Below are positions 5,018 to 58,139 of a DNA stretch of 64,000 bases, piece by piece. Position numbers and translations under genes: made by a program. The notes beneath the pieces were generated by a model. The model was not told where the DNA came from, ran no database searches, and saw nothing but the letters and a program-made list of their open reading frames with translations. The stretch covers positions 2,195,827 to 2,259,826 of the forward strand of contig OZ242366.1 of the NCBI GenBank assembly GCA_965208945.1, in the 5' to 3' direction. Each line of letters starts with the position of its first letter. Positions within the stretch are counted from its first letter, which is position 1. Origin of the DNA: Bryobacterales bacterium (GTDB lineage Bacteria > Acidobacteriota > Terriglobia > Bryobacterales > UBA6623).

Positions 5018-5953
5018 GTGAAAAAGAATCTTGGGCCCCTGATCGGCTTGGCGGCGGTTTACCTGCTGTTTTGCCTGTGGGCGGGAGAGCCGTTCTACTC
5101 GAACTTCAACCGCGTCACGGTGTTGACGCAGAGCGTGATCGTGACGGCGGGCGCGCTGGGGATGACGCTGATCATCATCTCGGGCGGGATCGATTTAAGC
5201 GCCGGATCGGTGATTGCTCTGTCGACGGTGGTGATCGCGAAGCTGCTCGAAGCGGGCTGGTCTCCGCTTGCGGCGGCGGGAGCGGGAATCCTGATCGGCG
5301 GGGCGTGCGGCGCGGCGAACGGCTTGCTGATCACGCGCTTGAAACTGGTCCCGTTCATCATCACCCTGGGAACGTTGTTGGTGTTTCGAGGGACGGCGAC
5401 GGGGTTGGCGGACGAGCAGAAGATCGACGCGCCGATCACTTGGCTGAACACGATGTTGGCGAAGTTTCCCGAACCGGCCTGGCTGATCGTGGCGCCGGGA
5501 GTCTGGGCGACGCTGCTGCTTGCCGTCGTCGTGGCTCTGCTGCTGAGGAACACCGTGCTGGGACGGCATATCTTCGCGATCGGCTCGAATGAGAACACTG
5601 CGCGGCTGTGCGGGATTCGCGTGGAACGTGTGAAGTTGGCGCTGTACTCGCTGGCCGGGACGTTGATCGGTTTCGCGGGGTTGATGCAGTTCAGCCGGCT
5701 GACCGTAGGCGATCCAACAGCGGCGAAGGGGATGGAACTGGACATCATCGCTGCGGTCGTGATCGGCGGCGGAAGCTTGAGCGGCGGCGAGGGGAGCGTG
5801 ACGGGGTCGGTTGCGGGGGCGATGTTGATGGCGGTCATCCGCAACGGGCTGAGCATGAAGGGCGTTCCGAACTGGGTCCAGGATGTGTTGACGGGGTCGA
5901 TCATCGTGGCGGCGGTAACGATGGACCGGCTGCGGCATCGGTCCGGAGGATAG
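5018..5953 (+). CDS. ABC transporter permease, ribose/sugar (RbsC-like) type
   Basis: GTG start after gcagggagag. Multi-TM protein with blocks typical of RbsC-type permeases (GGIDLSAGS, IFAIGSNENTARLCGI). The upstream part of the ORF-track ORF (4868-5017) is MITE sequence. Confidence 0.85.
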   Translation: MKKNLGPLIGLAAVYLLFCLWAGEPFYSNFNRVTVLTQSVIVTAGALGMTLIIISGGIDLSAGSVIALSTVVIAKLLEAGWSPLAAAGAGILIGGACGAANGLLITRLKLVPFIITLGTLLVFRGTATGLADEQKIDAPITWLNTMLAKFPEPAWLIVAPGVWATLLLAVVVALLLRNTVLGRHIFAIGSNENTARLCGIRVERVKLALYSLAGTLIGFAGLMQFSRLTVGDPTAAKGMELDIIAAVVIGGGSLSGGEGSVTGSVAGAMLMAVIRNGLSMKGVPNWVQDVLTGSIIVAAVTMDRLRHRSGG

Positions 5954-11978: not shown

Positions 11979-12779
11979 CTAATATCCTAGCACCGCGATG
12001 TCGGCCTGATGGGCGGACCGGAGAGCTTCTTCCATGTCGACAAAAAGGGTCTTGCCGGCTTCGACGGCCAGGGCGGTGGCTTTGGCTTCGTGCATTTTCA
12101 GGAACGTCGTCAGACCGATGACGGGGACATCGAAACGCATGTCCTGATTGGGTTTTGCCATCTTGACGATGGTGAGCGGGCGGCCGTTGCTGAGGCCGCC
12201 GGCCCGGGTGATGACGTCATTGGTGCCCTCCATGGCCTCGACGGCGACGCAGGCGCGTTCGCAGATGGCGACGGTTTGGCCGATGTCGTAGCTCACCAGG
12301 GCGCGGGCGACTTCCTTTCCGTATTCGATGTCCGCCCATTCGTCAGCGGTGGGTGACCGCGACGTCAGGCAACCCTCTGTTGCGAGGAAAGGCTCCAGAA
12401 ACCGCGTCGAATCGATCAGGTGGATGTCTTCGTCTTCCAGGAATCCGGCGACGGCGCCGAGCAGCGAGTCGGTGTTTTTGCGCGGCAGCGAAGCAAGTAG
12501 CTTCAGCAGTTTCCAGTCGGGACGGATCGAAGAGTAGATCCGCGCATGACGCACGCGGCCTGCCATGACGGCTTCGGTGATTCCTTCGTTTTGGAAGACG
12601 CGGACGAGCTTGGTCAGTTCGCCGAGGGAAACCCAGTGACAGCGATTGACTTGCTCTTCGAGTTCCGGGTCGGCCTCTCCTTTGATCGCGACGGCGATGA
12701 CTTCGTGCCCTTGCTGCCGCGCTGAGGAAGCGACCAGCATCGGAAACCGGCCTCCTCCGGCGATCAGACCGAGCTTCAT
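11979..12779 (-). CDS. lpxI: UDP-2,3-diacylglucosamine diphosphatase LpxI (DUF1009)
   Basis: 266 aa starting MKLGLIAGGGRFP. ATGA overlap with the lpxA stop. The remainder of the 403-aa track ORF overlaps lpxA out of frame. Confidence 0.85.
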   Translation of the reverse strand: MKLGLIAGGGRFPMLVASSARQQGHEVIAVAIKGEADPELEEQVNRCHWVSLGELTKLVRVFQNEGITEAVMAGRVRHARIYSSIRPDWKLLKLLASLPRKNTDSLLGAVAGFLEDEDIHLIDSTRFLEPFLATEGCLTSRSPTADEWADIEYGKEVARALVSYDIGQTVAICERACVAVEAMEGTNDVITRAGGLSNGRPLTIVKMAKPNQDMRFDVPVIGLTTFLKMHEAKATALAVEAGKTLFVDMEEALRSAHQADIAVLGY

Positions 12780-20198: not shown

Positions 20199-20373
20199 CC
20201 TGCTTTTCTCACCACGCGGCGAGGTGAAGTGCGTGAGAGGGCCGTCAGGACGAGGCGAGCCGCTTGGCGCGCGCAGGCGTACTTGAACAGTACGTTGAGC
20301 ACGGCAAGCAAGCGTAACGAAGTCCTGGCGGTCGTATCGCGTGCTTCGACCGTCAGGTGGTGAGAAATGCAGG
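20199..20373 (+). mobile_element. MITE copy C (short subfamily)
   Basis: TIRs present (the left one slightly degenerate, cctgcttttctcaccac). Flanks are CTGG and CTAG. Confidence 0.88.
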
Positions 20374-22284: not shown

Positions 22285-22485
22285 CCTGTATTTCTCACCA
22301 CGCGGCGAGGCGAAGTGCGTGAGAGGGCCGTCAGGACGAGGCGCAAGCCGGGCGGAGGAAAAAGGCGCGAGCCGCTTGGCGCGCGCAGGCGTACTTGAAC
22401 CGTACGTTGAGCACGGCAAGCAAGCGCAACGAAGTCCTGGTGCTCGTATCGTGTGCTTCGACCGTTGGGTGGTGAGAAATGCAGG
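22285..22485 (+). mobile_element. MITE copy D (long subfamily, 201 bp)
   Basis: Flanked by a direct TTAG...TTAG (22281-22284 and 22486-22489). Contains the extra segment aagccgggcggaggaaaaaggcgcg. Confidence 0.9.
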
Positions 22486-23265
22486 TTAGAGCCTTTCGAG
22501 TTGTTCGCCCGCCACGGCAAAGGCGGCGAAAAGAGTTGCATTGTAGCTGGCGTGAACCAGGGTCGACGGCAGGATCGAACCGGTTCGAGCGCGCAATGTG
22601 CCGAACACGACCCCTACGCCCAGCAGCAGCAGCAGGTTCTGCCATCGCCAGCCGTACTGCGTGCCGTGTACCAGTGAGAACAGGGCGCTCGTGGCGAAGA
22701 CCGCGAAGCCCGCCCCTCGGGAGCGCTCGAATACGGGGAACAGGAAGCCCCGAAAGAAAGTCTCTTCCAATACCGGGGCGAAAAGGATGCCGAAGACGGC
22801 GAGTAGGGCCATCACCAGCGGGTCTTCGAGAAGGATTTCGAGAGGCAGTTTCTCGTCCACCTGCGGCAGCAGCATTGAGACGAGAACCACGCTAATGGCG
22901 AGAAAAGGACCCGTGGCCAGGTATTGAACGGGTGAGCCCTCATAGCGGACCCAGCCGATCGAAGGCCCGAATCGCAAGCGGTACTTGACGGCAACGATCA
23001 GATAGATGAATGCGAAGACCGCGGCCCAGAGCAACATCGAAATCGCCACATTCAGAGGTCCCTGCACGCGCGGCTCTTCCAGGTTGACCTCCCAATCGAA
23101 CACGAATCCCATCCCATAGAGGCACCCGACGGCGATCACCGAGAGCATGAACAGGGCAATCACCCCAAAGACAAGCAGGTAGAGAAGATCGAGATATCCC
23201 CAGGTTTCCGGTTGCTCGGGGTCGTCTGGAGGCAAGAGCGGGGGTGGCTCGCTGGGGTGTTCCAT
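22486..23265 (-). CDS. CPBP family intramembrane glutamic endopeptidase (CAAX protease-like)
   Basis: Motifs EETFFRGF, SLVHG, HASYN. The stop TAA lies inside the TTAG flank of MITE D. An alternative start at 23292 uses the ATG in the MITE E1 terminus. Confidence 0.85.
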   Translation of the reverse strand: MEHPSEPPPLLPPDDPEQPETWGYLDLLYLLVFGVIALFMLSVIAVGCLYGMGFVFDWEVNLEEPRVQGPLNVAISMLLWAAVFAFIYLIVAVKYRLRFGPSIGWVRYEGSPVQYLATGPFLAISVVLVSMLLPQVDEKLPLEILLEDPLVMALLAVFGILFAPVLEETFFRGFLFPVFERSRGAGFAVFATSALFSLVHGTQYGWRWQNLLLLLGVGVVFGTLRARTGSILPSTLVHASYNATLFAAFAVAGEQLERL

Positions 23266-23285
23266 CGGCGAGCGCCGGTCGCTAG

Positions 23286-23666
23286 CCTGCATGTCTCACC
23301 ACGTGGCGAGGCGAAGTGGGTGAGAGGACCGTCAGGACTAGCCTGCATGTCTCACCACGCGGCGAGGTGAAGTGCGTGAGAGGGCCGTCAGGACGAGGCG
23401 CGAGCCGCTTGGCGCGCGCAGGCGTACTTGACAGTACGTTGAGCACGGCAAGCAAGCGCAACGAAGTCCTGGCGGTCGTATCGCGTGCTTCGGCCGTCGG
23501 GTGGTGAGAAATGCAGGCTAGGCGCAAGCCGGGCGGAGGAAAAAGGCGCGAGCCGCTTGGCGCGCGCAGGCGTACTTGAACAGTACGTTGAGTACGGCAA
23601 GCAAACGCAACGAAGTCCTGGCGGTCGTATGGCGTGCTTCGACCGTCGGGTGGTGAGAAATGCAGG
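23286..23666 (+). mobile_element. MITE copy E1 (long subfamily) carrying nested copy E2
   Basis: E1 is interrupted after gtcaggac by E2. E1 sequence resumes at 23522 with gcgcaagccggg. Confidence 0.88.
23342..23517 (+). mobile_element. MITE copy E2 (short subfamily) nested in E1
   Basis: Complete TIRs, with CTAG on both sides (23338-23341 and 23518-23521). Confidence 0.88.
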
Positions 23667-23783
23667 CTGGGGTTGTCCGGTCGCAAAGTATCCATCGTAA
23701 CGCGGAATGGAGGCGTCAAAGCCCGTAGTGGCCTCGTTTTCGACGTCCGTGAGGTTTCTGAGGTCAGGCCGGATAATGGGGCT

Positions 23784-24386: not shown

Positions 24387-24420
24387 CCTGCATTTCTCAC
24401 CACGTCGTTACACAGGCAGG
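24387..24420. mobile_element. Mini-MITE F (34 bp)
   Basis: Sequence cctgcatttctcaccacgtcgttacacaggcagg flanked by TTAG and CTAA. The right flank holds the stop codon of the 24421-24912 gene. Confidence 0.7.
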
Positions 24421-33077: not shown

Positions 33078-33170
33078 CGGATGTGAAACATCCTCCTGAT
33101 CAAGCGGCGTTGACGCCGATCCGGGTGTAGCCCGCTTGAACGATCCGACCACGAGCAGAGGAAAAACGGG
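33078..33170. repeat. X-module copy X1 (second short repeat family)
   Basis: Sequence gaaacatcctcctgatcaagcggcgttgac...cccgcttgaacgatcc..cacgagc..aaaaac. Similar to 44705-44803 and 34291-34416. Confidence 0.7.
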
Positions 33171-33237
33171 CCTGCATGTCTCGCCATGTGGCAAAGAGAA
33201 GTCCGTTCGCATCACGAATCAGGGCTTTCAAGTTTTT

Positions 33238-33269
33238 CACTAGCCACTGGCCACTAATCACTATCCACT
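33238..33269. repeat. CACTNNN x5 tandem heptads
   Basis: Units read cact agc cact ggc cact aat cact atc cact. Confidence 0.85.
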
Positions 33270-33282
33270 GCTTTTTTGCTTT

Positions 33283-33310
33283 TCACGAAACACGAGACCC
33301 GAAACACGGC
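33283..33310. repeat. Heptad tandem repeat (W)CACGAR x4
   Basis: Units read tcacgaa acacgag acccgaa acacggc. Confidence 0.8.
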
Positions 33311-33625
33311 CTTTTCTGTGGCTCGTTTGGTGCCCGTTGGTACTGAAGCCCTTCAGTCTTTTTTTCGGCCGGGGGACGGTTTAGGTTGAAAGTGATAACG
33401 CCGTTGTTGGGAACGAAAACCCCATCCGCGCCCGTCGGGGCCACAAGTCGGGTGGGGACGGAAGAGCCGCCCGGTCGCTACTTACCTGCGCGTTGTGGCG
33501 CGGCATGGGGCGGTTATGGCGCGGAATGGGCGGCCGCCGTCCCCCGCGCTGGCAACACGGCCTTTCCTGTTCACCAGACGTCAGATATTTCTTCTGGAGC
33601 GAACCAAGCCCCCCAACCATGGTTT

Positions 33626-33667
33626 TCACGAAACACGAAACACGAGACACGAGGCACGAATCACAGC
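33626..33667. repeat. Heptad tandem repeat (W)CACGAR x6
   Basis: Units read tcacgaa acacgaa acacgag acacgag gcacgaa tcacagc. Confidence 0.85.
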
Positions 33668-33680
33668 TTCCCTACCCACG

Positions 33681-33720
33681 ATTTCCCACCATTTCCCACG
33701 ATTTCCCGGCATTTCCCGGG
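33681..33720. repeat. 10-bp phased repeat ATTTCCCNNN x4
   Basis: Units read atttcccacc atttcccacg atttcccggc atttcccggg, with an exact 10-bp period. Confidence 0.9.
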
Positions 33721-33918
33721 CCCCCCACCCCCTCTCCGCCGATCAAGTGTCCACGAGCCGTCCGCCTTTCTTGGTCAGCCGCCCGGGACTGCCGCCCCCG
33801 CCCGGTCGCTGCTTTCCTGGGCGTTGTGGCGCGGCATGGGGCGGCTATGGCGCGGCATGGGGTGCCCCGAGCCACTGTTCACGCACCATCCTCACCAGCA
33901 ACATAACCATTCGGGTTT

Positions 33919-33953
33919 TCACGAAACACGAGACACGACACACGAATCACGGC
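33919..33953. repeat. Heptad tandem repeat (W)CACGAR x5
   Basis: Units read tcacgaa acacgag acacgac acacgaa tcacggc. Confidence 0.85.
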
Positions 33954-34290
33954 TTTTTTTCACATGCTGCGACCGTCGGGTGGTGAGAAATGCAGGCTAA
34001 CGCCCTGCTCGACGATCTGGTGGCTCAACAGCCGGCGGAAAAACGGACTAAGCGCGTCAGTCGGCAAGCCCGCAGGCTTCAAAGGGGCATGTACGAAGCG
34101 CGGGAAAACGAGTGGAAAGGACTTTTTCCGAATCCCGATTCGGTTCAAGATTCGGAATTCCCCACAATTCGTCACAATTCGTCGGAAAGATTCGGATAAG
34201 CACCTGCCGCCCATCAAGCGCCCCCGCGCACTGCGGCAACCGGGACATCGGCTTCATGGATGCATCGCGTCCCCGCCTGACCTTCCCTGG

Positions 34291-34416
34291 CCCGCAGGTC
34301 TCGCCAAGTGGCGAGGTGAATCAAGCGGCGTTGACAACGGTCTGGATATTTCCCGCTTGTATGATCCTCACACGAGCGGCCAAAAACCGAAAACTGAAAC
34401 TGATGAGAAAGGCAGG
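34291..34416. mobile_element. X-family small element X3 (126 bp) with degenerate MITE-like termini
   Basis: Left end is cccgcaggtctcgccaagtggcgagg, the interior is an X module, and the right end is tgatgagaaaggcagg. Flanks are CTGG and TCAG. Confidence 0.65.
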
Positions 34417-41337: not shown

Positions 41338-41533
41338 CACGCTTGGCGCGCGCAGGTGTACTTGATCGTACATCGAGCACGGCAAGCAAGCGCAACGTAG
41401 TCATGGCGGTCGTATCGCCTCCTTCGGCCCTCGGGTTACGAGACACGCAACACGGCCTTTAAGGTTTTTTACGAAACACGAAACACGGCCGTTTTATCGC
41501 GTGTTCCGGCCGTCATGTGGTGAGAAATGCAGG
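41338..41533 (+). mobile_element. MITE copy L (left arm missing; heptad-bearing right part)
   Basis: Begins within the gcttggcgcgcgcagg centre and ends in gtggtgagaaatgcagg plus CTAG. Contains two heptad arrays at 41436-41489. Confidence 0.8.
41436..41489. repeat. Two (W)CACGMR heptad arrays separated by ctttaaggtttt
   Basis: Units read ttacgag acacgca acacggc ... ttacgaa acacgaa acacggc. Confidence 0.8.
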
Positions 41534-41559: not shown

Positions 41560-43638
41560 GTGCCGAATCCGATCACACGAGGAGAATTCCTCGTTGCGCT
41601 CGCAGCGGGCGGTACTGCGCTGGCGAGCCCCGCCGTAGCCCATGACGGCGGCCGCATGATGTGGGACTTCATGACCGGCTACATCCGCCTGCTCGACCAA
41701 AAACGCCGCGAGCGTTTCGACGCCATCGAAACCCCGGAGGACCTCGACGTGCTGCGGCGCAAGGTTCGCTCCAGGCTCACCGAGATGTGGGGTCCTTTCC
41801 CCAAGGAAAAGACGCCGCTCAACCCGCAGAGGCTCGGCGTGATCGAGCGACAGGGTTACCGCATCGAGAAGATCATCTACGAATCGCGGCCGCGGTTGTT
41901 CGTGCCCGTGAACCTGTACCGTCCCACCGGCGCCGACGGACCCTTTCCGGCCACCATCTTTCCTCCCGGTCATGCCGCGGCCGGGAAGGCCTTTCCCGAC
42001 TATCAGAAGTTCTGCATTCGGATGGCTCTGTCGGGATTCGTCGTTCTCATCTGGGATCCGATCAGTCAAGGCGAGCGCGTCCAGCTTTGGAACGCGAAAG
42101 ACGACAGCCCACTGGCTGGAATTGGCACCCGGGAGCACAGCGTGCTGGGGCGGCAGTGCTACCTGCTGGGTCTCAATTTGATGCAGTACCGGGTTTGGGA
42201 GTCGATTCGGGCGATCGACTACCTGGAATCGCGCTCCGATGTGGATGCCGGCCGAATCGCCATGGCCGGCAACTCGGGCGGCGGCATGGAGACGCTCCAA
42301 TTCGCTGGCTTCGAGGACCGGCTGCAGGCCGCCGTATCCACCTGCGCCGTTGCGACGTTCCGAGCAAAGACCGAGGCCTTGTTGATTGCCGACCCGGAGC
42401 AGATCCTTCACGGCACGCTGCGGCACGGTATCGATCATCCCGAATTGCTGGCCAGCTTCGGACCCAGGCCCTTGATGATCGGCGCAGCCATCCGGGACTA
42501 CGTTCCCATCGCGGCCGCCCGCAGCACATACCAGGAAGTCGCCAAGGCCTATCGTCTGCTGAACGCCTCCGGGAAGCTTGTACTGCAGGAAACGGACGAC
42601 ACGCACGGCCTCAACAGGGAATTGCGGGATGCCGCCGTGCGCTGGCTGAGTCGCTGGTTGAATCCTGATGCCCCGAAGAGCGAAGAGCCGTTGGCTGTTC
42701 TGCCGGAGGAGGATCTTCGTTGCACCTCGACGGGCCAGGTCGCGACCTCCTTCGATTCGAGCAGCGTCTTGACGCTGAACCAGGCGTACGCCGAGCAGAC
42801 GGCCCCGCAACGTTCCGTCCCCAAAACCGCGGATGAATACACCGTCTTTCGCTCTGAAATCCGCCGTCGGGTCCAGAACATTACTCGGGTCGGACCGCTG
42901 AAACGCGAGCCCGGCGTTCTCGTGCCGGACCGTGTCTTCGATACGGCGGATTTCCCCAAAGGAGACGCGATCGTCGTCTCCGATTCGGGCAAGGACGATC
43001 CGCTCATTCGCCGCAGTGTCATCGACCCGCTCATTGCCGCGGGCTACCGGGTCATCGGCATCGACCTTCGTGGATGGGGCGTCACGAAGCCCGCCCTCGA
43101 GGGTTACCAGGTGAGGTTCGACTGGGACGACTTCTTTGCCTACCGCTCCCTCGAGATCGGCCGGCCGCTGTTGGGACAGCGCATGAGAGATCTGCTCGGG
43201 GCGGCCCCGAGCCGGACCACGCACCGCACTTGGCTTGTTGTCGGCGTCGGTGCGGCGGCGCTTGTTGCGCTGCACGCTGCCGTGATCGATCCGAGAATCG
43301 ACCGGCTGGTCACGGTAGGCGGACTGCTGTCGTACCGATCGCTCATTGACGATCCGCTCGCAAGAGAACCCTTTAGCAGCTATCTGCCCGGAGTGATTCG
43401 CGCCTACGACATCCGTGATCTCTATGCGGCGTTGGCGCCGCGCCAGGTGCTGGTCGTGAATCCCATGAGCTCGCGCCGCCGGCCGGCCGGGAGGCTGCAA
43501 GCCTGGGAGCAACTTGACTGGGCGTCCCGGGTCTACGAGCTGAACGGCGCGGCCGATTCATTCCGGCTGGAGACGAAAATCAGCTCCTTGCAGATGCGGG
43601 AAAGGCTCGAAGAATGGGCCGGTGCGGTAACCTGCTAA
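41560..43638 (+). CDS. Alpha/beta hydrolase (acetyl-xylan-esterase/dienelactone-hydrolase-like), secreted
   Basis: Nucleophile elbow AMAGNSGGG. A GTG start at 41560 gives VPNPITRGEFLVALAAGG. The alternative ATG at 41527 lies inside the MITE L terminus. Confidence 0.75.
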   Translation: MPNPITRGEFLVALAAGGTALASPAVAHDGGRMMWDFMTGYIRLLDQKRRERFDAIETPEDLDVLRRKVRSRLTEMWGPFPKEKTPLNPQRLGVIERQGYRIEKIIYESRPRLFVPVNLYRPTGADGPFPATIFPPGHAAAGKAFPDYQKFCIRMALSGFVVLIWDPISQGERVQLWNAKDDSPLAGIGTREHSVLGRQCYLLGLNLMQYRVWESIRAIDYLESRSDVDAGRIAMAGNSGGGMETLQFAGFEDRLQAAVSTCAVATFRAKTEALLIADPEQILHGTLRHGIDHPELLASFGPRPLMIGAAIRDYVPIAAARSTYQEVAKAYRLLNASGKLVLQETDDTHGLNRELRDAAVRWLSRWLNPDAPKSEEPLAVLPEEDLRCTSTGQVATSFDSSSVLTLNQAYAEQTAPQRSVPKTADEYTVFRSEIRRRVQNITRVGPLKREPGVLVPDRVFDTADFPKGDAIVVSDSGKDDPLIRRSVIDPLIAAGYRVIGIDLRGWGVTKPALEGYQVRFDWDDFFAYRSLEIGRPLLGQRMRDLLGAAPSRTTHRTWLVVGVGAAALVALHAAVIDPRIDRLVTVGGLLSYRSLIDDPLAREPFSSYLPGVIRAYDIRDLYAALAPRQVLVVNPMSSRRRPAGRLQAWEQLDWASRVYELNGAADSFRLETKISSLQMRERLEEWAGAVTC

Positions 43639-44704: not shown

Positions 44705-44803
44705 CCTGAAACATCCTCCTGATCAAGGGGCAGCGGACACCCATCCGGATGTTTCCGGATTGAATGATCCACAGACGAGCGGAGGAAAAACTGGCATAGC
44801 AGG
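44705..44803. mobile_element. X-family small element X2 (99 bp)
   Basis: Begins cctgaaacatcctcctgatcaag immediately after the TGA stop of the BNR gene. Ends ggcatagcagg. Separated from MITE M by cgag. Confidence 0.65.
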
Positions 44804-48814: not shown

Positions 48815-50512
48815 ATGCATGTGAACGCTGTTTTCGAGACCCCCTGTTTTTGGCGAAAATCGGCCGGTCCAGTCGGCAGCATCGCCGCTTTCGCCTGCCT
48901 TATGGCGGCGCTGGGCTGTAGCGGGAAAGAGGCTGTTTCATCGGCGGGCGCCGGCCTGATCCGCGCCGGCAGCATCGCCGCCCACACCCGGTTTCTCTCG
49001 AGCGACGCCCTCGAAGGACGCGGCATCGGAGGACGCGCCGAGGTGCTCGCCACCGAGTACATCGCGGCGCAGTTTGCCTTGGCCGGGGCTGCTCCGGCGG
49101 GAGATGACGGGACGTACTTCCAGGTGGTTCCGCTTGTCGGTGTCCAGACACAGCCCGATGCCATGCTGAGCTGGTCTGCGGGAGCGGGCGCCAGGCGCTT
49201 GCGCTACCTCGACGATTTCGTCGCTGTGAACCACCGCCAGCAACCGCTCGCCGAGGTGGACGCTGAAGCCGTCTATGTCGGTCACGGCATCGTAGCCCCC
49301 GAGTTCGAGTGGGATGACTACAAGGGGGTCGATGTCAAGGGCAAGATCGTCGTCCTCTTCACGAACGAGCCGGCATCCGACGATCCGGCTTTCTTCGGCG
49401 GACCGGCGCTCACCTACTACGGCCGCTGGACCTTCAAGTACGAAGAGGCGCTGCGCCAGGGCGCCGCCGGGTGCCTGATCATCCACACGACACCCACCGC
49501 CGGCTACCCCTGGCAGGTCGTCCGCAACTCTTGGAGCGGCCGCGAACCCTTCGTGGAGCTCGGCCCGGACGAAGAGGCCCTGAGCGTGGCCGGGTGGATC
49601 CATGCCGAGGCGGCCGCTTCGATGCTCGCCGCAACCGGCAAGAGCCTCGACGAGTTGCTGGCCATGTCGGAATCGCGCGCCTTCCAGCCGCTGCCGCTGT
49701 CGGTCCGCATCCGCACCCGGATTCCCAGTTCAGTCACTCCCATCCGCACGCGCAACGTCGTCGCGATGATCCAAGGCGGCAACGCTCAAAAACGGGACGA
49801 AGCCGTTCTCTATACGGCCCACTGGGACCACCTCGGCGTCGGCATCCCGGTAGACGGCGACAACATCTACAACGGCGCGGTCGACAACGCAACGGGCGTC
49901 TCGCTGCTCCTCGAATTGGCGCGTGCTTTCGGCGAGTCCGACGCTCGGCCGCAGCGCTCGATCCTTTTCGCGGCCGTCGGCGCCGAGGAGGGCGGCCTGC
50001 GCGGCTCGGAATACTACGCTCAGCATCCTTTCATCCCGGCCGGCCGGACGGCGGTGAACATCAACTTCGATGGCTTGGCCCCGCTGGGACGCACGCGCGA
50101 TATTACCCTTCCCGGTTTCGAGCGGACGACCCTGCGGCCTGTCGTCGAAGCCCTCGCCGAGGAATCGCGGCTGTCGATCCGTCCCGAAGCTCACCCCGAA
50201 CAGGGCTATTACTATCGTTCGGATCACTTCAGCCTGGCGAAGGTTGGCGTGCCGGCTTTCTCGGTGAAGCTGGGCGTCGACTACGTCGATCGACCGGAAG
50301 GCTGGGGCGTCGAGGCGCAGGAGGATTACACCGCGAACCGCTACCATCAGCCCTCCGATGAGTTCGATCCGGCATGGGATTTCTCGGGCCTCGAACAACT
50401 CGCGCGGTTCGGCTTCGAACTCGGCCTTAGCGCCGCCAACGCCCCGGACTTGCCCACCTGGAATGAAGGGGACGAGTTCCTGCCGGCGCGGCTCCAGTCA
50501 TGGGAACGCTGA
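48815..50512 (+). CDS. M28 family aminopeptidase with PA domain, lipoprotein
   Basis: Lipobox LMAALGCSG. Blocks HWDHLG, AVDNATG, EEGGLRGS. Confidence 0.85.
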   Translation: MHVNAVFETPCFWRKSAGPVGSIAAFACLMAALGCSGKEAVSSAGAGLIRAGSIAAHTRFLSSDALEGRGIGGRAEVLATEYIAAQFALAGAAPAGDDGTYFQVVPLVGVQTQPDAMLSWSAGAGARRLRYLDDFVAVNHRQQPLAEVDAEAVYVGHGIVAPEFEWDDYKGVDVKGKIVVLFTNEPASDDPAFFGGPALTYYGRWTFKYEEALRQGAAGCLIIHTTPTAGYPWQVVRNSWSGREPFVELGPDEEALSVAGWIHAEAAASMLAATGKSLDELLAMSESRAFQPLPLSVRIRTRIPSSVTPIRTRNVVAMIQGGNAQKRDEAVLYTAHWDHLGVGIPVDGDNIYNGAVDNATGVSLLLELARAFGESDARPQRSILFAAVGAEEGGLRGSEYYAQHPFIPAGRTAVNINFDGLAPLGRTRDITLPGFERTTLRPVVEALAEESRLSIRPEAHPEQGYYYRSDHFSLAKVGVPAFSVKLGVDYVDRPEGWGVEAQEDYTANRYHQPSDEFDPAWDFSGLEQLARFGFELGLSAANAPDLPTWNEGDEFLPARLQSWER

Positions 50513-50533
50513 GAAGTTTATAATTGAGACGCC

Positions 50534-51016
50534 TTGTCATACCTCGAGTGGCTTGAGAACTCACTGACGGACAAGCTCGAAGAGCAGCCGGTCGGAGAGC
50601 CTGTCGCCCTTCGCGCCTACCTGGAGCTGAGCGACGATCACGGGCACCTGGTTCCGACCGCCGGGGCGATGGCGGCTGTCGCAGGCGCTTGGTTCGGTGC
50701 GGGATTGCCCAAGGTCTATGCTCTCGGCGGAGCCGACCAGGGATACGTTTCGGTCACCGCGACGTATCCTGGCGGACAGACCGCTCTGATCGTCGCCGAG
50801 TCCTTGAGCGCAGCCGCCGGTGAGCGGCCCTCCGTGCGTCTCTTGCTGATCGGCAACCATGGCACGATGGAGTTCGCTGATTCGCCGGGTGCGGATTTCC
50901 GCACGGTCGATCGAACGCCGCCTGCCGGCGCGAGCAGCGAGGCTCTGAGCCGGGCGATAGCTGAGTCGCTCCGGTCCAGCGCCCCCGTGGAAGGGAGCAC
51001 GCACAGCCGTGGCTAG
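50534..51016 (+). CDS. Hypothetical protein (resembles a Gfo/Idh/MocA C-terminal-type domain)
   Basis: 160-aa ORF with a TTG start. Its stop TAG lies inside the left CTAG flank of MITE N. Start and function are uncertain. Confidence 0.45.
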   Translation: MSYLEWLENSLTDKLEEQPVGEPVALRAYLELSDDHGHLVPTAGAMAAVAGAWFGAGLPKVYALGGADQGYVSVTATYPGGQTALIVAESLSAAAGERPSVRLLLIGNHGTMEFADSPGADFRTVDRTPPAGASSEALSRAIAESLRSSAPVEGSTHSRG

Positions 51017-51192
51017 CCTGCATATCTCCCCGCGTGGGGACGTGAAGTGCGTGAGAGGGCCGTCAGGACGAGGCGCGCGCCGCTTGGCGCGCGCAGGCGT
51101 ACTTGATCGTACATCGAGTACGGCAAGCAAGCGCAACAAAGTTATGGCGGCCGTATCGCGTGCTTCGGGTGTCAGGCGGTGAGATATGCAGG
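51017..51192 (+). mobile_element. MITE copy N (short subfamily, variant centre gtacttgatcgtacatcgag)
   Basis: Flanks are CTAG and CTAA. The ATG in the right TIR (51186) opens the downstream ORF. Confidence 0.88.
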
Positions 51193-52340
51193 CTAAACCT
51201 TCGTTCGGCGTTCTGCTCGTAACGGGCGGGATGACCCACCAGGAGAACTACGGAGAGGGATTCCTCGCCGACCCGCGCGCAAGAGTCGTCGGCCTTACCG
51301 ATGAACCCGATGTCGACGAACGCCGCGACCGCCTGAACCGCGGATTGGCCGATCAGTTCGGCATCCCCTTCCTGCCGGATATCCGCGAGGCGCTCGCGCG
51401 GTCCGATGTGCACCTCGTCTCCGTCTGCTCGGAGTTCGAGCGGCGCACCCGCGTCTCTCAAATCTGTGCGGAAGCCGGCAAGCATCTCTACGTCGACAAG
51501 CCCATGGTGACGAAGATGGCGGAGGCCGACAAACTCGTGGCGACAGCCGGGCGGCGTGGTTTGCGCGGGCAGATGTTCACTCAGGTCGGCGCGCCGTACG
51601 CGAGGCGGCTGAAAGGAATCGTCGATTCCGGTGCTTTGGGCGAGATCAAGTCGATCCAGTGTGACCTCATGTTCGCGAAGGGTTTCACCGGCGGCGCTCC
51701 GCTTGGCGTGCCGCGGCGCGAGCACGATCCGCCCAGGCGGTTCACGTTCCCGGACGCCAAGCGTGAGATCTGGACGACCGCGGTCTATTCGCTCACCTTG
51801 ATCCGCTGGCTCCTCGGCGGACCCCGCTTTCGTAGCGTCTACGCCACGAGCGCCAACTACTTTTTCGAGGAGCACTACAAACGCGATGTCGAGGACTTCG
51901 GCACGCTTGCTCTCACGCTCGACAACGGCGTCACGGCGTCGCTGATCGCCGGCCGGATCGGTTGGCACAGTCACCGCAGTTCCGGCCCGAACTTCACGCG
52001 CATCATCGGTAGCAAGCGCAGCTTCCTTCTTGACGCGCACAGCCCGCGCTTCGAAATCTCGTCCGACCGAAAGTGGGCGCCGCCGGCGAAGGACCCCATC
52101 GATCCCATGGGCTTCTGGTCGAGCACCATGGAGCGTGGGAACGCTCAACCCAAGCCCTTTTGGCATGAGCCGCCGACCGCGCCCGGGCAATCGGATCAGG
52201 CTCTCTTCCTCGATTGCCTCGAACAGGACAAAGAGCCGGAAGTCACGCTGGACGATGCCGCGCAGGCATCCGAGGCCATGCTGGCCGCCTACCGGTCCGC
52301 TGCGACAGGGCAGGTGGTGGCGTTGCCTCTGCCGCGCTAG
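51186..52340 (+). CDS. Gfo/Idh/MocA family oxidoreductase
   Basis: 384 aa. Rossmann beta1 plus Gly-rich loop FGVLLVTGG begins at codon 7. The only in-frame start after the upstream TGA (51179-51181) is the ATG inside the MITE N terminus. The stop TAG lies in the CTAG flank of MITE K. Confidence 0.8.
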   Translation: MQAKPSFGVLLVTGGMTHQENYGEGFLADPRARVVGLTDEPDVDERRDRLNRGLADQFGIPFLPDIREALARSDVHLVSVCSEFERRTRVSQICAEAGKHLYVDKPMVTKMAEADKLVATAGRRGLRGQMFTQVGAPYARRLKGIVDSGALGEIKSIQCDLMFAKGFTGGAPLGVPRREHDPPRRFTFPDAKREIWTTAVYSLTLIRWLLGGPRFRSVYATSANYFFEEHYKRDVEDFGTLALTLDNGVTASLIAGRIGWHSHRSSGPNFTRIIGSKRSFLLDAHSPRFEISSDRKWAPPAKDPIDPMGFWSSTMERGNAQPKPFWHEPPTAPGQSDQALFLDCLEQDKEPEVTLDDAAQASEAMLAAYRSAATGQVVALPLPR

Positions 52341-52396
52341 CCTGCATTTTTCACGACGTGGCGAGGCGAAGTGGGTGAGAGGGCCGTCAGGACTAG

Positions 52397-54120
52397 CCCG
52401 GAAATCTCACCAGGGGGTAGGAAAAGGGCTGCCTGGTGTGGCATAAAACATTTATGTCCAAAACGTTAGCGCCACAAGCCGAAAGCAGCCCTCTGTCAAC
52501 AGAGTGTATCCAATCCAGCTTCACCTTTGCCAAGCATTTTCGACGCCAGGTGAGCGCTCGCTTTGACGGCGGGGTGATCAGTTCCGACGGCGGCGCGCTG
52601 CTGTTACGGGAGGTGGACCAGCGCATCAACCTGCTGCCGCGCTTGGCGGGCTGCTTCGAGGATGGCCGCGATTCGCGGCGCATCGAACACCTGGTGGGGG
52701 AGTTGGTCTCGCAGCGGGTCTACGGGCTGGCGCTGGGATACGAAGACCTCAACGATCACGACGAGTTGCGGCGCGATCCGGTGCTGGCGCTGCTGGCGGG
52801 CAAGAGCGACGTGTCCGGGCAGCGCCGCCGCCGCGAGCGTGACCGCGGCCAGCCGCTGGCGGGCAAGAGCACGTTGCAGCGACTGGAACGAACGACCGAT
52901 GGCGTGGATCGTTACCAGAAGGTCCGCTGCGTCAGCGAAGCGATCGACCGCCTGTTGGTGGACGTGTTCGTGGAAGCGCACTCGCAGGAGCCGGCCGAGG
53001 TCCTACTCGATATCGACGCCACCGACACGCCTTTGCACGGGCAGCAGGAGGGACGTTTCTTTCACGGCTACTACAGACACTACTGCTACTTGCCGCTGTA
53101 CATCTTCAGCGGCGAGCACGTGTTGTGCGCGCGGCAGCGGGTATCGAATCAAGACGCGGCGGCGGGCAGCGTAGCGGAGTTGGAGAGGATCGTGGCGCAG
53201 CTCCGGGCCGCGTGGCCGGAGGTGAAGATCATCCTGCGTGGGGACTCGGGGTTTTGTCGGGACGAGTTGCTGAGTTGGTGCGAAGAGAACCGGGTGGACT
53301 ATGTGGTGGGGCTGGCGCGCAACGAGCGGCTGCAGTCGTTGATCGAGGAGGCGCTCGAAGAGGCGGCCAGCAGGCAGCAGCAAACGGGCCGGCCGGCGCG
53401 GGCCTACAGCGAGTTCGAGTATCGGACGCTTGAGAGTTGGAGCCGGGAGCGGCGGGTGGTGGCGAAAGCCGAACAGTTGGTGGGCAAGCAGAACCCGCGC
53501 TACGTGGTGACGTCGCTGGACGGGGAGCGCTGGCCGCCGCGGCGGTTGTATGAACAACTCTACTGCGGGCGCGGGGAGGCGGAGAATCGCATCAAGGAGC
53601 AGTTGAGTCTGTTCGCGGATCGCATGAGTACGGAGACGCTACGGGCCAATCAGTTGCGGCTGCATCTGTCGTCGCTGGCGTATGTGTTGCTGGTGGGACT
53701 GCGGCGGCTGGGGCTGAAGGGCACGCAGTGGGCGCGGGCGCAGACCGAGACGATCCGGCGGGGGCTGTTGAAGATCGGCGCGCTGGTGAAGGTGAGCGTG
53801 CGGCGGGTGCATCTGTCGCTGGCCAGCGGCTACCCCGATGAGGAGGCGTTCGCGGCGGTGTATCGGGCGCTGCGTCCGCCGGGACCAGCAACTGTTTGAC
53901 AACAGTGAGCGAACCGAAAAACGGGGCCGTCGGCAGCCTCAGGGGCGAAGTGTTTCTCAAATCGGCCACAACCCGAAAAACGAACATTCGCGAGCCGCTA
54001 AGGGCAGCGCAAAACGCCCCGTAGAGGCCTTCACTCACCCTCGCCGCGAAGAATACCGTGTTTCAGACCCTATTTCGGCCTCCCTCAACCCATCGCGAAG
54101 CCGCTGGTGAGAAATGCAGG
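52397..54120 (+). mobile_element. IS1380-family insertion sequence (1724 bp), probable autonomous partner of the MITE
   Basis: Bounded by CTAG direct repeats (52393-52396 and 54121-54124). IRL is cccggaaatctcaccagg and IRR is gctggtgagaaatgcagg. IRR matches the MITE TIR at 16 of 17 positions. Confidence 0.85.
52436..53899 (+). CDS. IS1380 family DDE transposase
   Basis: 487 aa. N-terminal FDGGVISSDGGALLLREVD and the blocks LDIDATDTPLHGQQEGRFFHGYY and RGDSGFCR are typical of this family, identified from memory. Confidence 0.85.
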   Translation: MWHKTFMSKTLAPQAESSPLSTECIQSSFTFAKHFRRQVSARFDGGVISSDGGALLLREVDQRINLLPRLAGCFEDGRDSRRIEHLVGELVSQRVYGLALGYEDLNDHDELRRDPVLALLAGKSDVSGQRRRRERDRGQPLAGKSTLQRLERTTDGVDRYQKVRCVSEAIDRLLVDVFVEAHSQEPAEVLLDIDATDTPLHGQQEGRFFHGYYRHYCYLPLYIFSGEHVLCARQRVSNQDAAAGSVAELERIVAQLRAAWPEVKIILRGDSGFCRDELLSWCEENRVDYVVGLARNERLQSLIEEALEEAASRQQQTGRPARAYSEFEYRTLESWSRERRVVAKAEQLVGKQNPRYVVTSLDGERWPPRRLYEQLYCGRGEAENRIKEQLSLFADRMSTETLRANQLRLHLSSLAYVLLVGLRRLGLKGTQWARAQTETIRRGLLKIGALVKVSVRRVHLSLASGYPDEEAFAAVYRALRPPGPATV

Positions 54121-54281
54121 CTAGGCGCAAGCCGGGCGAAGGAAAAAGGCGCGAGCCGCTTGGCGCGCGCAGGCGTACTTATGGGATGGTTCGCTCCCAC
54201 TTCCGCTGCGTCGTCGAGTTCGGCCATGCTGGTAGCAACGGCCGTCCCCGGCCGCAGTTCACGAACCGAGAGGAAACCATC

Positions 54282-55355
54282 ATGGCAACGACCCAGCGAT
54301 CATCCCGCAAGAGCGTATGGAAGGAGGTCGTCACGATCGGCCTCGATCTAGCAAAACACAACGTCGACTTGGTCGGCTTGGACGCAACCGGCCGGGTGCT
54401 CACCCGTCGCCGCTACTCGAAGGGCAAGCTGCTGGAGGTGACCGCCCAGATGCAGCCCTGCCGTATCGGCATGGAAGCCTGCTGCGGCGCCCATCACCTG
54501 GGCCGCCAACTGCTGGCCCAGGGGCACGACGTGAAGCTGATGCCGCCCAAATATGTGAAGCCCTTTGTGAAGCGCGACAAGAACGACTCGACGGACGCCG
54601 AGGCCTGCGCGGAAGCCTGTCTGCGGCCGAGCATGCGCTTCGTGGCGGTCAAGAGCGAGCAACAACTGTCGATGCAGTCGCTGCACCGCTATCGCTCGCG
54701 GCTGGTGGGCAACTCGACGCAGTTGATCAACCAGGCGCGCGCCTTTCTGCTGGAACGCGGCATCACCCTTCCACAGGGCAAGCGTTGGTTTGTGGTCCGT
54801 CTGCCGGAGATCCTCGAGGACGCCGATAACGGCCTGTCCGACGAAATGCGGGCGCTGCTGGCGGGCATGTTTGCCGAATGGCAAGTGCTGGCAGAGAAGA
54901 TTCAGCAAGTCAACACCTATCTGCTGAGGAAAGCGCAGGCGAGCGAGGCCTGCCGGCGGCTCAGAGAGATCCCCGGCATCGGCGTGCAGACAGCGACGGC
55001 CTTGGTGGCGACGATCGGCAACGCCGAGGCCTTCGAGAAGGGGCGCGACGTCGCTGCTTGGTTGGGTCTGGTGCCGAGAGAGTACTCCAGCGGAGGCAAG
55101 CAGCGCTTGGGAGGCATCAGCAAGCGCGGCAACCGCTACGTCCGGACGCTGCTGGTGCACTGTGCCCGCTCGAGCCTCGACGTGCTCGCGAAGCGCAGCG
55201 ACCAACTCGGCCAGTGGCTGCGGCGGATGCTCCTGAACAAAGATCGGCGGGTCGTGATCGTGGCGCTGGCGGCACGGCTGGCGCGCATCGCATGGGCCTT
55301 GCTGAGCAGCGGCCAGCGCTTCTCTCAACAGCGGCAACCAGCCCCGGCGGGTTAA
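54282..55355 (+). CDS. IS110 family DEDD transposase/recombinase
   Basis: 357 aa. Blocks IGLDLAK, GMEAC, KNDSTDAEA, and C-terminal GISKRGNRYVR. Confidence 0.9.
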   Translation: MATTQRSSRKSVWKEVVTIGLDLAKHNVDLVGLDATGRVLTRRRYSKGKLLEVTAQMQPCRIGMEACCGAHHLGRQLLAQGHDVKLMPPKYVKPFVKRDKNDSTDAEACAEACLRPSMRFVAVKSEQQLSMQSLHRYRSRLVGNSTQLINQARAFLLERGITLPQGKRWFVVRLPEILEDADNGLSDEMRALLAGMFAEWQVLAEKIQQVNTYLLRKAQASEACRRLREIPGIGVQTATALVATIGNAEAFEKGRDVAAWLGLVPREYSSGGKQRLGGISKRGNRYVRTLLVHCARSSLDVLAKRSDQLGQWLRRMLLNKDRRVVIVALAARLARIAWALLSSGQRFSQQRQPAPAG

Positions 55356-55618
55356 CCGCCCTGCGGTCCGCCGTAGCACTACCAGGAGCTCACAGTTTGT
55401 CTGCTTACTCCCGATTGATGGACAAAACGGTCGTACCGGCGTCACCGAATCCTGTTACTGTTCATGGCCCTCACAGGTCGGCGTACTTATGAGGAGCGGG
55501 ACGTGCGGACCCCATCATGGCCCGGAACCAGCGCGGTTCCACCTAGAGGTCGGATATATTGGCGCAGACCAACGTTCAGCAAGAAGGAATAGGTGGACAT
55601 CCCGGGAGCGAACCATAT
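55356..55618 (+). ncRNA. Candidate guide (bridge/seek-type) RNA region in the IS110-family right end
   Basis: Contains tactgttca (55456-55464), the reverse complement of the right target flank tgaacagta. Also contains ggcgtactt (55480-55488), identical to the left target flank. A hairpin ggaacc-agcgc-ggttcc is present. No fold model could be run. Confidence 0.4.
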
Positions 55619-55864
55619 ATTGAACAGTACGTTGAGCACGGCAAGCAAGCGCAACGAAGTCCTGGCGGTCGTATCGCGTGCTTAGACCGCCGGGTGGCGA
55701 GAAATGTAGGCTAGTCGCTCCCGGAACGGTTCCCTGCCATCCCGCGCGCCAAGAGCGCCGGGCGATCGCTTGACGTAGGTGAGCCCTGAGCCGCTATCGA
55801 AGATCAGAGCGGTGTGATAACCTGACAGCAGCTCGACCCGCATACTCATTTGGGAGGAACGAAC

Positions 55865-58105: not shown

Positions 58106-58139
58106 CCTGCATTTCTCACCACGTGGCGAGACATGCAGG
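58106..58139. mobile_element. Mini-MITE O (34 bp)
   Basis: Sequence cctgcatttctcaccacgtggcgagacatgcagg with CTAG on both flanks. It abuts the thpR start codon. Confidence 0.75.

Follow-up and report, generated by a model that had tools for sequence, protein, structure and literature searches.

In a 64,000-nt stretch of the genome of a Bryobacterales bacterium (positions 2,195,827 to 2,259,826 of contig OZ242366.1; hereafter the window), the open reading frame (ORF) of a Gfo/Idh/MocA oxidoreductase (51186..52340, + strand; 384 aa, MQAKPSFG...) begins inside a MITE (a miniature transposable element with inverted repeats), which contributes codons 1 and 2 and the first base of codon 3. We describe here how this insertion cut the gene off from its own start codon and set it in frame with another one, carried by the MITE, that may replace it. 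The gene order around the locus (Cu2_monoox_C-like protein, M28 peptidase, 160-aa protein, oxidoreductase, aldo-keto reductase) is common to the window and the contigs that carry orthologs. The oxidoreductase has an N-terminal Rossmann and a C-terminal alpha/beta domain (PF01408, PF22725 and PF02894, all above the Pfam cut-offs), while the gene upstream of it in the operon (50534..51016, +), a coding call with orthologs in contigs L001, L099 and L004, encodes the 160-aa protein. The latter matches the N-terminal domain of fused relatives of 557-572 aa such as P0084 (30% over 121 aa). Judging from such fusions, the 160-aa protein and the oxidoreductase are probably parts of one enzyme that was split in this lineage and act together, and coupling would therefore matter for them.

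The native start of the oxidoreductase overlaps the stop codon of the 160-aa gene by 8 nt in all ortholog contigs (..AGC CGTG GCTAGC CGG CCG TTC GGC..). Comparison with orthologs lacking the insertion favoured the original prediction that the MITE supplies the start: a native GTG/ATG GCT AG. lies over the upstream TAG, exactly at the insertion point, in L001/L002/L003, L099/L100 and L004, and the insertion-free L001, L099 and L100 are 96-98% identical to the window at the nucleotide level. The filled site of the window reads ..CC GTG G-CTAG-[MITE 51017-51192]-CTAA-ACC TTC G TTC GGC... From left to right, it comprises a native Shine-Dalgarno (SD)-like GGGAG (50993..50997, +; GGGAGGG in L099) 11 nt upstream of the orphaned native GTG (51009..51011, +; placed by empty-site alignment with L001-L004), the left target duplication CTAG (51013..51016, from the empty-site comparison), which contains the TAG of the 160-aa gene (51014-51016), the 176-bp MITE copy (51017..51192; ~88% identical to other copies) with terminal inverted repeats (TIRs) at 51017-51031 and 51178-51192, and the right target duplication CTAA (51193..51196). 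The right TIR, GGTGAGATATGCAGG (51178-51192), holds an ATG at 51186-51188. Since the MITE sits exactly in the CTAG that overlaps the start, the native GTG was cut off, and both it and the native SD now lie 177 nt upstream of the gene body. The inserted length of 176 + 4 = 180 nt preserves the native frame across the MITE, and the MITE ATG stands in frame one codon upstream of the native Ala2.

Read from this ATG, the gene begins ATG CAG GCT AAA CCT.., giving M-Q-A-K-P-S-F-G where the ancestor had M-A-x-x-P-F-G (relatives MASRPFG). The predicted N-terminus would be (M)QAKPSFGVLLVTGGMTHQENYGEGFLADPR. The best database relative, P0001 (96% identity), lacks one residue by comparison and starts with MASRPFGVLLVTGG, and MAKPPFG, MARPPFG or VAKPPFG is found at the start of further orthologs; the N-termini of orthologs have the form MA[K/R/S]PPFGVLLVTGG. 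The next in-frame ATG (51231-51233) is codon 16, and there is no ATG, GTG or TTG within 51189-51230. An AlphaFold2 model (predicted local distance difference test, pLDDT, 91; predicted template modelling score, pTM, 0.91) assigned residues 7-12 to strand beta1, 13-18 to the Gly loop and 19-28 to the first helix. A protein begun at Met16 would thus lack beta1 and the greater part of the loop, as had been argued from the sequence beforehand. Synthesis of the enzyme from ATG 51231, or from a non-canonical codon within 51189-51230, has in its favour that the gene call for a database relative, P0005 (369 aa), places the start at the corresponding Met. We regard it as very improbable, as Met16 lies after beta1 and within the Gly loop, 38 orthologs show little or no variation at G8, V9, L10, L11 and G14, and the interval offers no canonical start. 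The empty sites, the N-termini of the orthologs and the lack of other starts before codon 16 thus all support the claim that the MITE ATG is the only plausible start; by the predicted structure, it is the only one able to give the whole enzyme.

The termini of the MITE had been described as bearing an outward-facing GGTGA and ATG, and this was confirmed at the scale of the window: outward-facing GGTGAGAAATGCAGG termini occur 35 times at ≤2 mismatches (14 exact), where shuffles gave an expectation of 0.10, and the ATG is kept in 31 of them. Each MITE end reads outward as ..GGTGA GAA ATG CAG G and then the target CTAG; the 4-bp flank of window copies is nearly always CTAG or CTAA, and terminus and flank together read ATG CAG GCT AGx/AAx, that is MQA(S/R/K). 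The 35 termini pair as the two ends of a ~177-bp element with inverted repeats CCTGCATTTCTCACC and GGTGAGAAATGCAGG. Copies measure 175-201 bp, have TIRs of 15-17 bp and a 4-bp target duplication (CTAG/CTAA), and contain no called coding ORF. Four window copies (22285-22485, 23286-23666, 51017-51192 and 52341-55710) are missing from relatives, and two copies of L099 (its own positions 5319-5500 and 12093-12276) are missing from the window. Empty sites with a single CTAG or CTAA were found in L001, L099, L100 and L101, and reciprocal filled sites in L099, so that the presence of the MITE is polymorphic among genomes that are 96-98% identical (window versus L099/L100/L001/L101). These filled and empty sites in close relatives therefore indicate that the MITE is currently or recently active and duplicates 4 bp of its target. 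The window contains ~6-fold fewer CTAG sites than base composition predicts (35 seen, 217 expected), and most occurrences are MITE flanks. The exact 19-mer GGTGAGAAATGCAGGCTAG was found in at least 94 genome stretches, spanning many phyla, and in at least 120 metagenome stretches, whereas the full 177-bp MITE (≥90% identity) is essentially confined to metagenome-assembled genomes (MAGs) of Bryobacterales, the exceptions being two very short contigs binned elsewhere. Going by isolate names, many of the MITE-bearing Bryobacterales MAGs look sponge-associated.

A second gene of the window shows the same arrangement. The ORF of a CPBP protease (22486..23292, - strand) starts at a MITE ATG (23292-23290) and reads MQASDRRSP...; a nested MITE cluster of 381 bp (23286..23666; duplications CTAG at 23282-23285 and CTGG at 23667-23670) lies in codons 9-10 of the gene, at a site that is empty in L101. 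CPBP orthologs begin MDTLRPDNPTDRRSP. In the window, the orphaned native ATG (23693..23695, -) is followed by the codons for MDTLRPDNP (ATG GAT ACT TTG CGA CCG GAC AAC CCC AG at 23695-23667) and then by the cluster, and the far junction reads ..ATG CAG GCT AGC GAC CGG CGC TCG CCG with the MITE ATG in frame. The orphaned ATG opens a 137-codon ORF that runs through the MITEs and ends at the duplication TAG 5 nt after the MITE ATG. The original prediction treated the CPBP gene as merely an optional case; the empty site in L101 instead identifies it as a second severed gene, despite an ATG at codon 10 (23265-23263, -), 9 codons after the MITE ATG, where close orthologs have Ile/Val (SPMEHPSE versus SPIELPSE). 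This ATG is present only in the lineage that carries the insertion, and may serve as an alternative start. The hydrolase gene was also listed as optional: its MITE terminus (41519..41533, +) brings ATG 41527 in frame, 11 in-frame codons upstream of a GTG (41560-41562) that aligns with the Met of orthologs (MANPITRG, MRYPITRG), and the native start is therefore intact. The same insertion is present in L099 and L100, whose product is called MQAT.... All five ORFs listed as starting with MQA, at 20367, 23292 (-), 41527, 51186 and 54114, do exist, but those at 20367 and 54114 turned out to be upstream in-frame extensions rather than MITE-initiated genes: the real start of the former lies ~71 codons downstream, at a signal peptide, and the latter is an IS110 transposase whose real start is at 54282. 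An ORF at 20205 (-) was rejected as an antisense shadow ORF.

Only two of the three frames cross CTAG without a stop codon. Within coding sequences of the window, CTAG occurs five times as CTA Gxx and three times as xCT AGx, so there is no prior bias toward the ATG frame. Among 365 termini from the window and the fetched loci, coding-like ORFs open from the terminus in the ATG frame in 26 cases, compared to 13 in the other open (+1) frame (one-sided p = 0.027). The pre-insertion sequence was reconstructed across the MITE. Four strong ATG-frame candidates emerged, in L048 (MIPS then HSRRQFL; a FG-GAP/ASPIC protein with a Tat signal), L061 (MA then SDRH..; radical SAM), L045 (GGGAGG-N9-TTG ACT AG, then the insertion) and L106 (MSP then SQLR..; MatE), and in all of them the far side of the MITE bears a start codon followed by 1-3 codons that rejoin sensibly to the downstream ORF. 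Weaker candidates were found in L031, L085, L097, L184 and L198. No severed start was seen among the 13 coding ORFs open in the alternative frame (CTA Gxx), as all of them keep their own start a few codons downstream or look disrupted in mid-gene. Such a restriction of severed starts to the ATG frame is what survival of in-frame insertions alone would produce, and it implies a working ATG.

At the right end of the oxidoreductase MITE, the SD-like AGGCGGTGA (51174..51182, +) matches AGGAGGTGA at 8 of 9 positions, and its GGTGA core ends 3 nt before the ATG. The aligned spacing is ~6 nt, within the 5-9 nt of an SD-led start; the complementarity of AGGAGGTGA is to the textbook 3' end of 16S rRNA; no 16S gene lies in the window. 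A leader ORF of 57 codons (51009..51182, +) runs from the native GTG through the whole MITE and ends at a TGA inside the GGTGA. This TGA had been placed at 51179-51181, which is off by one; it lies at 51180-51182, and is followed by GAT and then by ATG 51186, leaving a gap of 3 nt. The MITE RNA is predicted to form one long hairpin (-144 kcal/mol for the 251 nt of 50990-51240, z = -8.2), and no terminator was found in or near the MITE. We compared leader ORFs in eight cases, comprising both verified genes, all four strong candidates and the weaker L085 and L097. In each of the eight, the frame set by the putative native start is open through the MITE (54-137 codons), compared to a baseline of 55% of the copy-orientations of this MITE family in which that frame is open. 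Its stop is in every case either the TGA 3 nt before the ATG or a target-duplication stop beginning 5 nt after it, so that the first base of the stop lies 6 nt upstream or 8 nt downstream of that of the ATG. A stop codon this close to a start codon is the classical geometry of termination-reinitiation.

We therefore favour coupling, because the leader stops adjoin the ATG and a translating ribosome would melt the hairpin. The proposed course of events is as follows. The MITE integrated into the CTAG where the oxidoreductase start overlaps the upstream TAG, separating the native SD and GTG from the gene, and any gene that crosses the target as xCT AGx is rejoined in frame to the MITE ATG; the oxidoreductase protein would be altered only from M-A-... 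to M-Q-A-.... Ribosomes starting at the orphaned GTG, or arriving from the upstream gene, would translate the 57-codon leader through the MITE and thereby melt its hairpin, halt at the UGA inside GGUGA, and presumably restart 3 nt later at the AUG, where the SD-like AGGCGGUGA (8/9 match to AGGAGGUGA) could help to hold them. Insertions into the first codons of genes, otherwise lethal, could survive thanks to this start-codon property. We estimate the probability at roughly 0.65 that the MITE joined the gene to a new in-frame ATG that is reached mainly by termination-reinitiation, with the start property being most likely a by-product of transposase recognition.

Several observations weigh against this reading. 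In both the minimum free energy (MFE) and the centroid fold, the whole right TIR, including GGUGA and AUG, is paired with the left TIR, and no sigma-70-like promoter was detected in 50400-51400. The exact junction pattern ATGCAGGCTAAACCTTCGTTCGGCGT had no match in the JGI metagenomes. The cross-genome cases come from by-eye, post hoc curation of 8-kb slices. Across 274 termini, variation at the ATG equals or exceeds that in the rest of the TIR; selection on the ATG was accordingly rejected, since nothing pointed to added constraint. In both orientations of the MITE consensus the xCT-AGx frame runs through without a stop, but an open frame as a family-wide design was also rejected, since it is not generally open across 40 sequence families with the same terminus. 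Finally, the insertion is absent from relatives only 2-3% diverged and may be so young that neither an intact ORF nor a low ratio of nonsynonymous to synonymous substitution rates (dN/dS) is informative.

The pairing of GGUGA and AUG in the hairpin makes simple SD-led initiation doubtful, and reinitiation after the leader ORF fits better. An alternative explanation is that the MITE ATG is used through ordinary SD-directed initiation, as originally suggested, with no role for the leader, on transcripts that start in the MITE or while the hairpin breathes. The 8/9 match of AGGCGGTGA to an extended SD and its spacing agree with this, as does the use of GGAGG-type SDs by the organism, and ISEcp1 and ISPme1, which belong to the same IS1380 family as the parent element of the MITE (see below), carry outward promoters near one end (PMC9330008). 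We nevertheless consider this route unlikely, given the absence of a sigma-70-like promoter in the interval scanned and the pairing of the whole right TIR in both folds, and because it leaves the leader stops beside the ATG in all eight cases unexplained. The ATG is no better conserved than the rest of the TIR, and the same terminus is the recognition end of an IS1380-family transposon present in many phyla; the portable translation-initiation module is thus best taken as a lucky by-product rather than a proven adaptation.

It was also considered whether the insertion killed the gene, in which case 51186-52340 would be a very young, undecayed pseudogene and the in-frame ATG a one-in-two coincidence. 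A recent insertion is conceivable, because L099 and L001, only 2-4% different, do not have the MITE; both the ATG and the SD-like sequence are buried in the hairpin; and two stop-free frames cross CTAG, so the prior for an in-frame ATG is ~0.5. The dN/dS of the oxidoreductase was 0.27 versus L099 and 0.20 versus L001, and the value versus L099 is above that between L099 and L001 (0.14). However, it equals that of an intact neighbour, the M28 peptidase (0.27; intact neighbours overall 0.10-0.65), and the CPBP gene gave 0.19 versus L101. These ratios and the lineage-specific substitution counts are compatible with constraint but too weak to decide, the test being low-powered because the insertions are polymorphic among genomes 2-4% apart. 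What makes a dead gene rather doubtful, if possible, is that the same in-frame layout recurs at the CPBP gene and the four strong candidates with none in the other frame, that the leader ORF ends 3 nt from the ATG, and that the MITE copy and its immediate flanks are ~12% diverged, hinting that the allele may predate the strain split.

The divergence at the insertion is local. The MITE copy (51017-51192) differs by ~12% from the family consensus, and substitutions between the window and L099 are clustered around it, with seven in the last 56 nt before it, six in the first 9 nt after it and none in the next 50. The clustered changes (50961-51006 and 51197-51205) include the native SD (GGGAGGG to GGGAGCA) and codons 3-5 (AGC CGG CCG to AAA CCT TCG), while the surrounding genes are only 2-3% different from L099. 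The clustering may reflect tuning after the insertion, recombinational import of an older MITE-bearing allele, or error-prone repair at the insertion. ATAT/CCGC variants in the MITE were rejected as in-situ adaptation, because they are the same at both TIRs and in L031, L039 and L040 and are thus subfamily marks.

As regards the origin of the start-codon property, it is most likely a by-product that widens the range of tolerated insertion sites. This follows from four points: the terminus is a transposase end conserved across phyla, the ATG is not special within it, the left end of the autonomous insertion sequence (IS) in the window, GGTGAGATTTCCGGG, has no ATG, and openness of the leader frame is not common to the families. 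One could argue instead that the TGA-N3-ATG-N5-TAG arrangement evolved and was selected for lowering the cost of insertion. Of the three outward frames, one is open and the other two reach a stop no more than 8 nt from the ATG; MITEs of many phyla share an identical 19-mer that contains the ATG, and there is an excess of the ATG frame. We find selection of this kind improbable, as the four points above stand against it and transposase binding alone predicts a conserved terminus. The same low expectation applies to the notion that the IS1380-type terminus is a built-in self-healing cassette consisting of a stop TGA, 3 nt, an ATG, 5 nt and the stop TAG of the duplicated target. Were this true, ribosomes in two of the three frames would terminate beside a start in frame with xCT AGx genes, and the element could insert at operon junctions and first codons without polar or null effects, which could help to explain a density of about one copy per 3 kb in sponge-associated Bryobacterales and the same 19-mer across phyla.

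Termination-reinitiation at close or overlapping stop and start codons was reportedly described as a mode of translational coupling by Adhin and van Duin in 1990. The present case resembles operon coupling in the distance of the stop from the start, 3 nt ahead of it or, for stops that begin beyond it, 5 nt, and in having an upstream ORF that would unfold the structure masking the downstream site; it differs in that the upstream ORF is accidental, composed of an orphaned gene start and transposon sequence. RPE of Rickettsia is a mobile repeat within host ORFs. Fusions of repeats with ORFs have been described for the enterobacterial RU-1/ERIC, RU-2 and RU-3 (PMC2759123), and pneumococcal BOX has a start codon in boxC (PMC3049150), with BOX-derived ORFs lacking good SD candidates. 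In RU/ERIC, BOX and RPE, as here, repeat sequence is incorporated into a host ORF, whether at its 5' or 3' end or in its interior, but they mostly yield extensions or new hypothetical ORFs, and none is described as rescuing a conserved enzyme with a severed start. REP2 of Neisseria meningitidis and plasmid repeats of Borrelia are dispersed and bring a site for ribosome binding, together with an ATG, to genes (PMC3184786). REP2 is like the MITE in being a dispersed repeat directly upstream of genes. Unlike it, REP2 is not a transposon with TIRs and target-site duplications, has no known transposase partner, carries a promoter and has not been shown to replace a start that it severed, whereas here the ATG lies inside the TIR and empty sites document the loss and replacement of the native start. 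In ISEcp1 and ISPme1, of the same IS family, the element end likewise activates the adjacent gene, through an outward promoter at one end (PMC9330008); their effect is transcriptional and relies on a complete promoter, while the one proposed here is translational and comes from a 177-bp MITE without a detectable promoter. Our literature search returned no start codon carried within a TIR that takes over from one cut off by that very insertion, and no such replacement with empty sites, recurrence across genes and genomes, and a leader ORF ending at the new start.

If the proposed replacement is correct, it documents a route by which the own end of a transposon neutralises an insertion into the first codons of a gene, and relaxes the usual rule that MITEs stay intergenic. 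Natural two-cistron leaders would arise in this way and could alter the level or the regulation of expression. The cases all combine a MITE ATG with a leader ORF and an orphaned start, and would suit the study of bacterial reinitiation across a very stable hairpin. For annotation, it matters that gene callers start such genes inside the repeat or shorten them: in P0005 the call was made at the downstream Met, while the sequence of P0121 starts with MQAT.

The probable source of the MITE lies just downstream of the oxidoreductase. IS1380-family elements are ~1.6-2 kb long, with a single ORF, inverted repeats starting with CC and a 4-5-bp duplication. An autonomous element at 52397-54120 (1724 bp, CTAG-flanked) fits this description in its size, its one ORF, its CC ends (CCCGG.. 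and CCTGC..) and its 4-bp duplication. Its transposase (52436-53899, one ORF, 487 aa) scored 383.8 bits against the NCBIfam IS1380 family transposase model NF033539 (cut-off 180) and matched Pfam PF13701 with E = 7e-147, and the same element is also present in L005. The right end of the element is identical to the MITE TIR and the left end is related, and by this likeness the MITE is a non-autonomous derivative of an IS1380-family insertion sequence. The autonomous element itself sits in a second MITE (52341-55710; flanks CTAG at 52337-40 and 55711-14) at the stop codon of the oxidoreductase, whose TAG lies inside the target duplication. This gives a three-level nesting over 52341-55714, in which the IS1380-family element splits the MITE at an internal CTAG (52393-96) and an IS110-family (RNA-guided) element (~54181-55621) splits it again in the palindrome at its centre, GCGTACTT^GAACAGTAC. 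The empty site for the second MITE in L001 has only 147 bp between the two genes.

Stop codons on either strand are a frequent target of the MITE (22486-89, 24421-24, 44985-88, 51013-16 and 52337-40, and also L184 at ~5270). At least five window insertions put the stop of a neighbouring gene inside the duplicated target; as the duplication regenerates the stop, many insertions can lie flush against gene ends with the protein unchanged. Among other repeats in the window, a distinct one of ~70-80 nt (..ATCAAGCGGCGTTGAC..CCCGCTTGAACGATCC..GAGGAAAAAC) adjoins MITE termini at 33099-33168, 34320-34389 and 44723-44792 and has no Rfam match; an Rfam scan of the window gave no match to known RNA families. 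ATA replaces ATG at two termini, 22291 and 31743. In the first of them the ATA precedes the real start of the next gene by 30 nt, in a different frame, where a functional upstream ATG would interfere, but the ATA variant is also common elsewhere (11 of 274 termini) and may just mark a subfamily. A stretch of 826 bp between MITE-type termini (33171-33996), with internal 69-nt direct repeats (33467-33535 and 33798-33866) and no called coding ORF, is possibly a non-autonomous derivative of larger size. At the other extreme of the family are its smallest members, mini elements of 34 bp, two TIRs back to back, each with a 4-bp duplication, which were found in the window (58106-58139 and 24387-24420) and in L011 and L024.

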